A stretch of 63,035 nucleotides of DNA, the filler included, from Methanobacteriota archaeon (lineage in GTDB: Archaea; JACRDV01), in the NCBI GenBank assembly GCA_024860865.1. It is 4 parts of 4 records of this genome, joined end to end, with 100 filler letters (N's around TTAATTAATTAA, not from the genome) between each part and the next. Parts side by side here need not be neighbours in the genome. Positions count along the whole stretch, not along the records: positions 26,494 to 31,482 come from JACRDV010000065.1; 3 more parts are not named here. One strand, given 5' to 3'. The notes under the pieces were generated by a model, which saw nothing but the letters and a program-made list of their open reading frames with translations, ran no database searches and was not told the origin of the DNA. A program made the position numbers and the translations under genes. Shown one piece after another: positions 3,110 through 30,819 of this stretch; within the stretch, counting starts at the first letter, position 1, and each line of letters begins with the position of its first letter.

Positions 3110-3173
3110 TTTTCTCTATGATGAGGTGAACCTGCGTCTGAAATATGATGATTGCTTACCTCTGATGAGGAAA
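3110..3173 (+). ncRNA. Archaeal box C/D sRNA (2'-O-methylation guide)
   Basis: C ATGATGA 3118-3124, D' CTGA 3138-3141, C' ATGATGA 3145-3151, D CTGA 3162-3165; guides of 13 and 10 nt; terminal stem TTTTCTC/GAGGAAA; intergenic. Confidence 0.9.
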
Positions 3174-9118: not shown

Positions 9119-10606
9119 TTAGCTAATAGCTGTTGTCTTTACTTTTTCCAACTGAAAAGCACTTATGGGGTAGATATTTGAATAATGATATTTTTTTGCC
9201 CACTCCTGGGTTAAGCTCTCCTCCAATTTTTGAAAGGGATCCAACCCCATCTGTTTCCAAGTAGCCAGCATAGTCATGATTATCCCATAGATAGAGGTTC
9301 CCTTCTCATTCCTAAAAGTTCCAATTATCTTCCTCTGAACAACGTGCTCCCTGAGTGCCCTCTCTGCCCTGTTGTTAGTTGGCTCAACTCTTGGTTTAAT
9401 TACAAAGGTGAACCAGTAGTTAGCTCCGTTGCGAATCTTCTTAATTAGTTTTCTCACTTCTTCACTCTTATAAGATTTCTTTACTAAGTATTCCAACCTT
9501 CTCTTTGCACTCTTAGCCAATCTTTTCCTCTTCTCAGGAGGAGGCTTATTTTTAAGTGATTCCTTGAGATCATTGTAAAGCTTGTGCAGCGCTTTAGAAA
9601 GTTGCTTTGCTTCCTCAACATACTCTGCTAGGTAATCTGCTTCCCTCAGCAAGTGGGCCCAATCTCTCTGGATGTTTCGGGTGAATTTTGGATAAGATCT
9701 CCATCCGTCGCAAACTATAACCCCTTTGAAATCATTTCCCAAAATCTCCTCCAAAACTTTTCTGCCCCTGCTGTTTCTTATTGCGACTAATGTTTCAGAG
9801 TTTGTCACGAAACCCCAGAGCCAGTACTTCCTGCCATCAACCTTTCCACCAGTCTCATCGTTGTAAACTACTTCTGACTTTCGTATGCGTTGAACAACTT
9901 CATTGTAACTTGGCTTTAGCCAGTCGCTCACCCTTCTTGTTATATCGAATATAGTTGAGGGCGTGATGGAAAGACCATAAAACCACTTTAGCACATCCCT
10001 AATCTTGCAGTGAGGCAATCTTGCCTCGTACTTCAAAAGAGTAACATAAGCCTGCAAATTCTTGCCAAACCTTCCTTCAGGCGGGCAATCTGGATGCCTA
10101 GCAACAACATGTTTATTGCAGTTTGGGCAAATCCCGTGCCATTCCTGAAAATCTATCACCATAGGCATGGGCTTAGGGATTTCCTCCACTATGTTGTGCT
10201 TAACAGCTATTGGGTTTCCTAGCTTAGCTCCACAGCAAGGGGAAACATTCCACTCAGGCTCTTTTACAACATCAGGTTTTGGGATAGGTCTAGTGCTGCC
10301 AGGATGTCCTTTAGGCCTTCCCGGGAACCTTTTTCCATTTTTTGGACTTCCACCATTGCATTTTTTAGGATACTTTCGCTGGGAGGAAGGCACGTTTGAA
10401 TTTTCGTGAAGAGAAAGCCTGCGCTTCAGTTCTTTTATCTCAATTTTAAGTGCAACATTTTCCTCTTTCAGTGCGGCATTTTCCTCCTTCAGCGCTAGGT
10501 TCTCCTTTCTTAACAAGAGGTTCTCATTGGCTAGCTGGTCAAGCTTTTTTTCCAAATTTTTCAAAAATTCCAGAGAGTGAATTTTCAGCTCGGCTTTATT
10601 TTCCAT
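9119..10606 (-). CDS. tnpC: IS66-family transposase
   Basis: Leucine zipper, NSNVPSS, Zn finger, DETG, CDGW, WAHLLR, TNNRAERALR. Confidence 0.95.
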   Translation of the reverse strand: MENKAELKIHSLEFLKNLEKKLDQLANENLLLRKENLALKEENAALKEENVALKIEIKELKRRLSLHENSNVPSSQRKYPKKCNGGSPKNGKRFPGRPKGHPGSTRPIPKPDVVKEPEWNVSPCCGAKLGNPIAVKHNIVEEIPKPMPMVIDFQEWHGICPNCNKHVVARHPDCPPEGRFGKNLQAYVTLLKYEARLPHCKIRDVLKWFYGLSITPSTIFDITRRVSDWLKPSYNEVVQRIRKSEVVYNDETGGKVDGRKYWLWGFVTNSETLVAIRNSRGRKVLEEILGNDFKGVIVCDGWRSYPKFTRNIQRDWAHLLREADYLAEYVEEAKQLSKALHKLYNDLKESLKNKPPPEKRKRLAKSAKRRLEYLVKKSYKSEEVRKLIKKIRNGANYWFTFVIKPRVEPTNNRAERALREHVVQRKIIGTFRNEKGTSIYGIIMTMLATWKQMGLDPFQKLEESLTQEWAKKYHYSNIYPISAFQLEKVKTTAIS

Positions 10607-10618
10607 GCCTAAAAGAAT

Positions 10619-11957
10619 GACACTGTTCGGAATTACTGGGTTGTCTGACTTATAGCAGACGTACGTCAGCTCAATTACTATTTTTGAAATGGAATCTCTA
10701 ATTCTACTTTATGAAGACCTTTCAAATAGACCTTGGGCCAGGAGGCATTGAGGCATTTATTGCAGTACAGCCTGCAGAAATCAAATGCCCAAGGTGTGGC
10801 TCAACCCATGCAATAGTTCACGATTGTTACTTTCGAAAGGTTCGAGACGTAAATTTGGAGCAAAGCCAAACCATATGCCTCCTGGTGATTCTATATGAGT
10901 GTAAGGAATGTAAAAAAACTTTTGCTCCAAAAATAGATGGGATCGGACCTTACGCAAGGTACACAAATAGAGCAAAGAAATTGGCAAGAGATTCAGTTAT
11001 AAGGGACAACCTTTCAACCAGAAAAGCAGCTGAGAGATTTAAAGAAGACTTTAAATTAAAAACTTCAAACTCAACCATATATGAGTGGTCAAAGGAGAGC
11101 TACGATGAGAAAATCTTTCCATTCAGCTTTTCAGGAGTTCTATGCATAGATGAAGCGCACTCAAAAACAAATGGAAAAGAGGACAGGGTTTTAATTGCTG
11201 CAGATGGAGTTAAAGGAGATGCGATTTTATTTGAGCTGAAAGAAAATGCAAGAGAAGAGAGCATTGAAGAAGCGCTAAAAAAGCTGAAAGAAATGGGAAT
11301 TGAGCCATTTTTAATAGTCACTGATTTTCACTCAGCTTACCATGAAGCGATTGAAAATGTTTTTCCAAATGCTATCCACCAGCTCTGCCATTTCCATTTC
11401 ATGCAACTTATAAACAAGCACCTCTGGAAAGCGATAAAAAAATTCAGGGACAGGTTGAAGAAAGAAGATAGAAAAGAAATAAACAAGCATAGGTTCAAGA
11501 TCTTAAAAAACCAAGAAAATAGGGATAGTGAAGAAGAAAAAATTGTAGGAGATTTACTAAAAAAGCACAAAGGAACAATTCTAGAGAAAGGATTAGTGTT
11601 AAAAGAAAGAATTCAAGAAATTTTCAAAAGCAATAACAAAAAAGAAGCAGTGCAAAAAATAAAAGCAGTATTAAAGGAAAAGCATCCAAAGTCTCTTAGA
11701 AAAATAATCAAGCCAATAAAATATCATTGGAAAGAGCTAATTTCTTACATGGACTTTGAAAATGTTCCAAGGACAAACAATCCGGCTGAGATAGTGAAGA
11801 GAAAGTACAGGGCATTCGAAAGGGCAAGGTATGGATTCAAAAGCAAAGATGGAAAGCAAATGCTCATCAAAAATTTCCAACTTTCAATTTTGATACAAAA
11901 AACAAAAAAATGGTTAGAAGGTCTACCTACCTAAACCCAGTAATTCCGAACAGTCTC
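10619..11957 (+). mobile_element. ISL3-like insertion sequence nested in the IS66 element
   Basis: 24-bp IR GA(C/G)ACTGTTCGGAATTACTGGGTT; 8-bp duplication AAAAGAAT at 10611-10618 and 11958-11965. Confidence 0.95.
10711..11934 (+). CDS. ISL3-like DDE transposase
   Basis: CPRCG...CKEC Zn finger, CIDE, VTDFHSAY, CHFH, TNNPAE. Confidence 0.9.
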   Translation: MKTFQIDLGPGGIEAFIAVQPAEIKCPRCGSTHAIVHDCYFRKVRDVNLEQSQTICLLVILYECKECKKTFAPKIDGIGPYARYTNRAKKLARDSVIRDNLSTRKAAERFKEDFKLKTSNSTIYEWSKESYDEKIFPFSFSGVLCIDEAHSKTNGKEDRVLIAADGVKGDAILFELKENAREESIEEALKKLKEMGIEPFLIVTDFHSAYHEAIENVFPNAIHQLCHFHFMQLINKHLWKAIKKFRDRLKKEDRKEINKHRFKILKNQENRDSEEEKIVGDLLKKHKGTILEKGLVLKERIQEIFKSNNKKEAVQKIKAVLKEKHPKSLRKIIKPIKYHWKELISYMDFENVPRTNNPAEIVKRKYRAFERARYGFKSKDGKQMLIKNFQLSILIQKTKKWLEGLPT

Positions 11958-29954: not shown

Positions 29955-30189
29955 CAGTAACCCCTCATATTAATATTTTTAACTAAAGTTTAGGTGTTTA
30001 AACAAATAATAAAGTTAAGTTTATTTTGCCTTTTTTAGGGATTTGAAGCCATTTTATAGGATTTAAATTAGCGTAAGTTTATAGGAAATTATTTTTCAGA
30101 AATCTTAATAATTAAGAACTGAACAGCAGGTGTCCAAAATTTTATAGTGAGTAACGAAAATATTATTAAAAATGATCTAAGTGGGCCCA

Positions 30190-30367
30190 GGGCCCGTAAG
30201 CGGAATCTTCCGCCGGGATGCTCAGCTTGGTTAGAGCGTCCGAGGAAATAACTCCGGCGAAGCTCATAACCGGATGGTCAGTTGGATGAACTGAGCTCAG
30301 AGGCTTCTATTGGCTTGAGCAGACTCATCCTCCCTAAAAACCGGTTCAAATCCGGTCGGGCCCACCA
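30190..30367 (+). tRNA. tRNA-Ile2(CAT) with three introns: 30199-30219 (9/10), 30243-30261 (30/31), 30280-30339 (48/49); CCA encoded
   Basis: The spliced 78-nt product folds as a complete cloverleaf and every junction lies in a BHB. A GGGCCCG acceptor stem favours Ile2 over Met. Confidence 0.88.
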
Positions 30368-30485
30368 GTTTTGAATACACGTAAGCGAGCAACTTATCAT
30401 TTATGAAATCGTTAAATCTACGGCAAAAGATTTTAAACCTAATAAAAGGAATTATTTCTAGTGCTCCGGTCAGCCGGGCGCTGCT

Positions 30486-30651
30486 GCTCCAGGTTCGACA
30501 AGAATCGGCAAAGGTAGTCTAGCCCGGTCAAAACTCTCAGTTGCCGGTAGGATTTCGGCCTTAACAGGTTAGTTTTTCTAATCTATGGCCAATCGAGCCG
30601 GAGACACGGGTTCAAAGGAGAAATTCTCTGAAAATCCCGTCCGGAGCACCA
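30486..30651 (+). tRNA. tRNA-Glu(TTC) with four introns: 30491-30512 (5/6), 30531-30548 (20b/21), 30563-30592 (34/35), 30617-30634 (59/60); CCA encoded
   Basis: Spliced 78-nt product GCTCCGGTAGTCTAGCCCGGTCAAGGATTTCGGCCTTTCGAGCCGGAGACACGGGTTCAAATCCCGTCCGGAGCACCA; four BHB motifs. Confidence 0.92.
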
Positions 30652-30704
30652 CTATTTTTGAGAAATTACTTTAAATGAAAGCAAACTTATTGTTTTATAT
30701 CGTT

Positions 30705-30819
30705 GCGGGGGTGTTCCGAGCGGTCAAAGGAGCTGGAGGTTTGCACTCAGGTGTAGATCGGCGAAGCTTAGGACCCAGTGGGCGTAGGCCCTTCCAGGGT
30801 TCAAATCCCTGCCCCCGCA
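30705..30819 (+). tRNA. tRNA-Leu(TAG) with one intron, 30737-30765 (30/31)
   Basis: GCGGGGG/CCCCCGC acceptor, long variable arm, BHB with one A.G mismatch. Confidence 0.9.

Follow-up and report, generated by a model that had tools for sequence, protein, structure and literature searches.

Three intron-bearing tRNA genes in a row

The window, meaning the whole 63,035-nucleotide stretch of DNA analyzed here, has 35% G+C and carries three G+C-rich tRNA genes in a row at 30181-30819 on the plus strand. Direct reading and scripts placed a tRNA(CAU) gene with three introns at 30190-30367 (+), followed by a tRNA-Glu(UUC) gene with four introns and an encoded CCA at 30486-30651 (+) and a tRNA-Leu(UAG) gene with one intron at 30705-30819 (+). 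All three genes were missed by ARAGORN and Rfam when these were run on the unspliced, whole window. By reading, a window-wide scan for G/C-rich acceptor pairs beside a T-loop remnant yielded no further tRNA genes, and a simple acceptor-pair scan takes a leader sequence of tRNA-Glu, the copy described below, for the 5' end of the gene. We settled the intron structures by splice motif and cloverleaf together, since brute-force intron removal followed by ARAGORN proved too permissive to decide. Elsewhere in the window, 3114-3167 (+) gives weak matches to the C/D-box sRNAs sR1, sR14 and sR3, all below gathering scores, and genes for an IS66-family and an ISL3/Mutator-type transposase adjoin at 9119-10606 (-) and 10711-11934 (+).

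The tRNA(CAU) gene begins with exon 1 (30190-30198, +; tRNA positions 1-9), which comprises the 5' acceptor strand, U8 and A9 and was placed by motif scan and cloverleaf. It is followed by intron 1 (30199-30219, +; 21 nt, position 9/10; strict hBHBh' motif, H 4/4, h1 3, h2 5), exon 2 (30220-30242, +; positions 10-30, namely the D-arm, 26 and 27-30), intron 2 (30243-30261, +; 19 nt, position 30/31; strict hBHBh' motif, H CGUC/GGCG), exon 3 (30262-30279, +; positions 31-48, with the anticodon CAU), intron 3 (30280-30339, +; 60 nt, position 48/49) and exon 4 (30340-30367, +; positions 49-76), the last three exons being placed by the cloverleaf. Exon 4 includes the encoded CCA and, at 30358-30365, the partner of the leader copy; as a correction to the initial annotation, the gene ends at 30367, CCA included. 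A further correction is that the third intron has only a relaxed motif, with three of the four central pairs (H 3/4) and an outer helix of 6 bp. Two candidate 3' sites exist for this intron, a strict one at 30330/30331 and the relaxed one at 30339/30340. The strict site would leave nine extra nucleotides in the variable loop, and 30339/30340 is taken as the functional site. In-silico removal of the three introns gives a 78-nt RNA that carries the encoded CCA and that ARAGORN folds into a perfect cloverleaf: the anticodon is CAU, the acceptor stem has 7 bp, the D stem 4 bp and the anticodon and T stems 5 bp each. The four exons follow one another in order within 178 nt, so the gene is neither split nor permuted.

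With respect to identity, the tRNA has the anticodon CAU and the pair G1:C72, and the initiator marks (A1:U72) are absent. Its T-arm and the 3' strand of its acceptor are also found, by reading, in metagenome tRNAs with GAU and in others with CAU. Because of G1:C72, and because the acceptor and T-arm are common to GAU tRNAs in metagenome loci, the gene is plausibly one for tRNA-Ile2 rather than for elongator Met, and we refer to it as Ile2; in tRNA-Ile2, CAU reads AUA once C34 has been modified.

Three of the four tRNA-Glu introns have strict motifs: one at 5/6 (30491-30512, +), one in the D-loop (30531-30548, +) and one at 59/60 (30617-30634, +). The fourth, at 34/35 (30563-30592, +), splits the anticodon and has a central helix only (GGCC/GGCC); removal of all four leaves a 78-nt cloverleaf. 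In the 5/6 motif, leader bases -6 to -2 go into the outer helix and base -1 into the central helix. In tRNA-Leu the intron lies at 30737-30765 (+; position 30/31), and the gene encodes no CCA. The ends AGG...CGGC(G/A)AA are common to introns 30243-30261, 30491-30512 and 30737-30765, one in each of the three genes and two of them at 30/31, which may reflect kinship of these introns or their spread within the cluster.

A predicted intron between A9 and G10

Intron 1 of Ile2, which the motif scan places between A9 and G10, has a strict hBHBh' motif. Its central helix pairs CCCG (C4-G7, 30193-96) with CGGG of the intron (30214-17), all four pairs being Watson-Crick, and its outer helix pairs G1-G3 with C11-C13 (G-C, G-U, G-C). 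The inner hairpin, GCGG(A)/(U)CCGC, has 4-5 pairs, and the two 3-nt bulges read UA|A and AU|G, in keeping with cleavage after the second base of each BHB bulge. The site is unambiguous because shifting the boundary by one base either way alters the mature sequence, which on correct removal reads U8, A9 and then the D-stem GCUC. Thus 30199-30219 has the features of archaeal BHB tRNA introns, namely a central helix, bulges, flanking helices of at least 2 pairs and a canonical tRNA upon removal. We regard it as a predicted BHB intron. The motif takes up the whole 5' acceptor strand, as the initial annotation had proposed, with positions 1-7 all included.

Leader sequences complementary to the tRNA 3' ends

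Two nucleotides upstream of +1 of Ile2 lies GTGGGCCC (30181-30188, +), the exact reverse complement of 30358-30365, which takes in G67-C72, the discriminator base A73 and, from the encoded CCA, C74. The complementarity claimed earlier for this leader is therefore borne out, with 8 of 8 Watson-Crick pairs (P 0.98, RNAfold). The tRNA-Glu leader contains GTGCTCCGG (30461-30469, +), which forms 9 of 9 pairs with 30641-30649 (positions 66-74), likewise at P 0.98. Both helices end exactly at G:C74, with the next bases on either side unable to pair. It had been noted that the Glu and Ile leaders start with GT plus their own acceptor strand; this is correct, and the pairing is further extended to A73 and C74, since the GU that opens both copies stands opposite A73-C74, whereas CA and CU stand before the true 5' strands. 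In Glu the copy runs without a break, corresponding to the spliced sequence, while the gene's own strand is split at 5/6, after C5. tRNA-Leu, which has no 5'-proximal intron, indeed has no copy and only A+T-rich sequence upstream, and provides a negative case within the window; Ile2 and Glu, the two genes with a copy, encode CCA, and Leu has neither.

The GU extension to A73 and C74 in both copies fits selection for complementarity to the 3' end, beyond duplication of the 5' strand. We favor this reading of the copies as complements of the 3' end because of the GU opposite A73-C74, the contiguous Glu copy and the occurrence of copies at the two CCA-encoding genes. In Ile2, a leader perfectly complementary to the 3' acceptor strand is combined with a 5'-proximal motif that uses the true 5' strand, which is our provisional definition of a "spare acceptor strand". 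Judged by its sequence, tRNA-Glu is built alike: its copy is 9 bp long, and the motif of its 5/6 intron likewise draws on the leader. The hexamer GGGCCC is its own reverse complement, and the Ile2 copy together with the true strand constitutes a 7-nt tandem repeat (GGGCCCA/GGGCCCG). Two other roles for the Ile2 copy were ruled out: it is not a true exon, since G7-A9 are missing from it, nor does it make a hairpin with the true strand, as the loop of such a hairpin would be 1 nt.

Chance expectation and control genes

Both words are rare in the window. Counting both strands, GTGGGCCC has 3 matches against 0.45 expected and GTGCTCCGG has 2 against 0.08, counts that 0 of 100 shuffles reached in either case. 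Because each of these rare words falls within 30 nt upstream of its own gene, coincidence is very unlikely. We then compared Ile2 with a control set of 146 non-redundant tRNA-like genes, consisting of the Ile2 gene itself and 145 genes from metagenome loci. A complement to the 3' end of at least 7 nt within 40 nt upstream occurs in 2 of the 146, Ile2 and a doubtful 59-nt candidate in locus L014, both with 8 nt; of 2920 shuffles, 11 attained 7 nt and none attained 8 nt. In the rest of the 146 genes, the longest leader complement to positions 66-74 tracks the shuffled expectation. The leader complementarity is non-random, and the contribution of chance is negligible. A search of the 145 control genes for a strict BHB with its 5' site at positions 7-13 returned 9 matches, with only the Ile2 gene convincing by reading.

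Two upstream complements of the 3' strand are present in 14 of 166 tRNA-like genes of the metagenome loci. In 4 of these 14 (L003, L042, L098 and L117), reading revealed a 12-19-nt copy of the tRNA 5' end, 53-117 nt upstream of a gene with no 5'-proximal intron; the L117 spacer also carries the complement of tRNA positions 10-19. A phage tRNA gene in locus L206 has a copy of its first 9 bases upstream. Such copies therefore arise in other ways too. Compared to those of Ile2 and Glu, the metagenome copies are longer and more distant and lack the extension opposite position 73. The initial annotation had argued that two different sequences following the same rule suggest selection: both copies are real and far beyond chance, but the sample behind the argument consists of two cases plus one negative.

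Candidate promoters and the extent of the leader

Whether the Ile2 copy is transcribed depends on the start site. The initial annotation had pointed to candidate TATA boxes near 30140 and 30161, and both are present. By eye, the distal one is a candidate BRE/TATA element, CCAAAA-TTTTATAG (30134-30147, +), that resembles the motif CAAAAG-ATTTTAAA upstream of Glu (30424-30437, +); the proximal one is a second A+T-rich box, ATATTATTAAAAA (30160-30172, +). In archaeal promoters the start lies about 26-27 nt from the center of the TATA box. G30461, the first base of the Glu copy, is 30 bases past the first T of TTTTA, and the same spacing applied to the box at 30134-30147 would place the Ile2 start at about 30170, giving a leader of about 20 nt that holds the copy. 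If the box at 30160-30172 acts as the TATA box, the start could instead fall at about 30188-30193, excluding the copy and giving a leaderless RNA. The element CCAAAA-TTTTATAG is unchanged in relatives X2 and X3 (introduced below), and 30126-30129 just upstream varies. No informative signal emerged when TATA positions were profiled upstream of ORFs. For Glu, the leader would have to be transcribed at least to -6, because the predicted 5/6 splice motif uses leader bases -6 to -2.

Variation among close relatives and searches for orthologues

The stretch itself, or relatives at 90-95% identity, occur in public DNA runs from groundwater and hot-spring metagenomes, and contigs of three other runs (X2, X3 and X4) over the tRNA cluster served as relatives. 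In Ile2, the relatives differ at 30174 and 30177 in the leader upstream of the copy, in the hairpin loop of intron 1 (A30205C), in the loop of intron 2 (A30247G) and in intron 3, where 30290 is changed and about 26 nt of the central hairpin are missing in X2. In Glu, the differences lie in the leader spacer (30479), the loop of intron 1 (30499 and 30501), the predicted 34/35 intron (30566, 30573 and 30585), the T-loop intron (30620) and the trailer (30652). All 6 in-gene Glu differences thus fall within predicted introns, and across both genes the exons, motif helices and copies have 0 changes, all differences being confined to leader spacers, intron loops or hairpins and the trailer. This pattern supports the exon/intron map as read from the sequence. 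The Ile2 copy is unchanged in X2 and X3 and the Glu copy in X2 and X4, although this conservation is not significant, as the relatives are 90-95% identical and the chance of no change is estimated at about 0.2-0.4, or between a quarter and a half of such comparisons for 9 bases. Copy and acceptor are both invariant in X2-X4, relatives too close to show covariation. Between the CAU and Glu genes, X2 has 103 other letters in place of the 28-nt spacer (30372-30401).

Searches further afield yielded no orthologue of the arrangement. A search of species genomes for syntenic loci by way of the neighboring ATPase found 1 locus, 46% identical; its genome was rejected as a relative, with the gene absent and a TopA identity of 43%. 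A metagenome scan with the 3' exon gave 120 stretches, which by reading included no orthologue with a 9/10 intron, nearly all of them being tRNAs of other archaea with either no intron or a canonical one. Among viral contigs, the 5' exon followed by a gap and the D-arm gave 119 stretches, 9 of them with a downstream CGGGCCC and none an archaeal intron-bearing tRNA. The topoisomerase I of the window is 65-75% identical to proteins named for Candidatus Aenigmatarchaeota, and one 67% match is named Bathyarchaeia; judging from this one protein, the organism is probably a DPANN archaeon.

Folding models of the precursors

We then assessed the predicted effect of the copy on precursor folding using RNAfold. 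In the minimum free energy (MFE) fold of the Ile2 precursor with its leader, the copy pairs with the 3' end and C4-G7 pairs with the intron; without the leader, the MFE fold contains an ordinary acceptor stem. The central helix of the 9/10 motif has a probability of 0.945 with the leader versus 0.000 for the leaderless RNA at 37°C, 0.861 versus 0.000 at 55°C and 0.507 versus 0.000 at 70°C. Conversely, the acceptor stem has a probability of about 0.9 (0.94) in the leaderless RNA versus at most 0.05 with the leader. Shuffling the nine leader bases reduced the mean probability of the central helix to 0.027 (with 5 of 200 shuffles at 0.5 or above) and 0.044 (5 of 150). The 3-bp outer helix of the motif is weak in all models (P 0.07). 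Formation of all three Ile2 BHBs together has an energy of -51.7 versus an optimum of -79.8 kcal/mol, and their simultaneous formation is not predicted because it lies about 28 kcal/mol above the optimum.

For Glu, the copy adds 15.8 kcal/mol (MFE of -84.8 versus -69.0), and the probabilities of the motif helices are unchanged with or without it (0.029 and 0.515). No gain in the model is seen for this gene because the intron already splits the acceptor strand. The predicted folding effect is large in Ile2, where the model switches from 0.000 to 0.945, but does not extend to the Glu motif. After in-silico splicing, the copy keeps the 3' strand in both genes, with a probability of 0.98 versus at most 0.001 for the true acceptor, and the duplex energies of copy versus true strand are -16.8 versus -14.9 kcal/mol for Ile2 and -17.1 versus -12.8 kcal/mol for Glu. 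Trimming of the GU or of the CCA had little effect on this competition. As the copy still wins after splicing in a model that ignores tertiary structure and enzymes, a release step would be needed.

A possible surrogate acceptor strand, weighed against alternatives

The likeliest reading, for which we judge the chances to be about evenly balanced, is that the Ile2 copy is a transcribed surrogate acceptor strand that leaves the true 5' strand available to the 9/10 splice motif. The three-intron pre-tRNA(CAU) would carry the 8 bases of GUGGGCCC in its 5' leader, where they would stand in for the 5' acceptor strand. Formation of the 9/10 motif requires pairing of the true 5' strand with the intron (through C4-G7) and with C11-C13 (through G1-G3), so that the motif and the 7-bp, all-G/C acceptor stem are mutually exclusive. 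By pairing with G67-C74, the copy would remove the 3' strand from competition, allowing the BHB to form and the splicing endonuclease to cut. While bound, it would deny RNase P a true acceptor stem and keep A73-C74 double-stranded, and splicing would have to come first for these two reasons. Once the intron is lost, the true strand would displace the copy and the leader would be removed. The splice motif, the complementarity with its non-randomness and the modeled switch are results of this analysis; transcription of the copy, its use in the cell and its release are inferred.

The same leader helix could serve a different purpose, closing the ends of the precursor or timing its processing in general, rather than specifically enabling the 5'-proximal splice motif. 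A transcribed helix between leader and 3' end would join the ends of a long, multiply interrupted precursor and might keep RNase Z, RNase P or exonucleases away from the encoded CCA, A73 and the 5' end, or prevent premature aminoacylation. The Glu copy, which adds 15.8 kcal/mol and leaves the motif probabilities unaltered, is what such a role would predict, as are the persistence of the copy helix after splicing in the model and the reach of both helices to exactly C74 in genes that both encode CCA, Leu having neither feature. However, the switch from acceptor stem to splice motif in Ile2 is both specific and large, and copies are found at the two genes with 5'-proximal introns, not at the intron-bearing Leu, although three genes cannot separate the two readings. 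We consider general end-closure unlikely. To a comparable degree we doubt that the copies are non-functional relics, possibly untranscribed, left by slippage in Ile2 and by an old partial duplication of the 5' end in Glu. The 7-nt tandem repeat of a palindrome formed by the Ile2 copy and true strand is an easy product of slippage, L003, L042, L098 and L117 have partial upstream copies of tRNA 5' ends with no 5'-proximal introns, the phage gene in L206 repeats its first 9 bases upstream, and a start set by the proximal A+T box could leave the Ile2 RNA without a leader. A relic origin does not readily account for two different adjacent genes each having a copy, nor for the GU opposite A73-C74, which duplication of the 5' flank does not supply (about 0.06 for each gene and 0.003 jointly, estimated from base composition). 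Moreover, the Glu copy is uninterrupted whereas the gene's own strand has an intron, the splice motif needs the Glu leader to at least -6, and, as a weak indication, the copies are unchanged in relatives whose neighboring leader bases have changed.

Far less probable than either is that the copy provides an alternative first exon or 5' splice site, such that splicing removes most of the leader. The Glu copy is preceded by U, as is the true strand, and a central helix UGCU/GGCA with a bulge CC|G, as at the true site, could form there; joining at the copy would yield an identical mature sequence, preceded by a leader of 2 nt. This upstream site has no outer helix and, by reading, an inner helix of 1 pair, and it is not among the strict candidates. 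In Ile2 the copy has no G7-U8-A9, so joining there would produce a defective tRNA, and the proposal does not cover both genes.

If the copy is indeed a surrogate acceptor strand, it would resolve the puzzle of how an intron survives at this position, given that a 7-bp G/C acceptor stem should block splice motifs needing its 5' strand. The solution would be an RNA-only, chaperone-like element, and the order of tRNA processing steps would be fixed in these archaea. We think it possible, though with somewhat less confidence than we have in the reading for Ile2 itself, that intron-rich archaea have a general class of cis-acting pre-tRNA elements, so far undescribed, made up of leader surrogate acceptor strands. 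By neutralizing the 3' acceptor strand, such elements would let BHB introns settle in the acceptor/D-junction region and would impose splicing before end-trimming, with the G:C74 and U:A73 extension and the encoded CCA as parts of the device. Gene finders are misled by the copy, which adds to the tally of "missing tRNAs" in DPANN and Asgard genomes.

Comparison with known systems

Full-text searches of the literature turned up no account, in any intron-bearing pre-tRNA, of a leader element pairing with the 3' acceptor strand. Such an element is unmentioned in the available portions of PMC4090602, PMC4033280, PMC5829648, PMC12397907, PMC8450103, PMC11291895 and PMC3241643, and the word "leader" has 0 occurrences in the preprint 10.64898/2026.10.13.758758, PMC12397907, PMC5829648 and PMC3241643. 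The need of archaeal BHB introns near the tRNA 5' end for flanking sequence to complete the motif is described in an excerpt on tRNAscan-SE 2.0, which adds 60 nt (PMC8450103). A review lists, in the part available, tRNA intron sites at 3/4, 20/21, 22/23 and others, ending with "etc."; 9/10 is absent from this list (PMC4090602). Position 3/4 is the published extreme for archaeal tRNA introns.

The Ile2 arrangement is a variant within archaeal BHB tRNA introns and not a new kind of system. The non-canonical and multiple tRNA introns of Thermoproteales, DPANN and Asgard archaea are, as outlined in that part of the review, likewise defined by BHBs and spliced by protein, at many positions and with several per gene (PMC4090602). 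The tRNA-Glu gene appears to need four excisions, compared to a maximum of three introns per tRNA gene in Thermoproteales given in the accessible text of PMC4033280. In the split tRNA halves of Nanoarchaeum equitans and in permuted tRNAs, complementarity between extra-tRNA leader and trailer sequences likewise builds a substrate for the endonuclease, and in those tRNAs, according to the available portions of the two sources, the extra sequences pair with one another, form the BHB and are cut off by the endonuclease (PMC4090602, PMC4033280). Unlike these, the Ile2 leader copy pairs with positions 67-74 of the mature tRNA, outside any BHB, in a contiguous gene. Engineered riboswitch leaders and other work on RNase P modulation offer a second parallel, as there too a 5' leader sequesters part of the acceptor stem and thereby controls processing (PMC8925977, in part). 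Those systems, as far as the excerpt of PMC8925977 extends, are synthetic or concern RNase P efficiency and involve neither intron splicing nor a naturally occurring copy of an acceptor strand, whereas the Ile2 and Glu copies are natural, and that of Ile2 would act on the formation of a splice motif.
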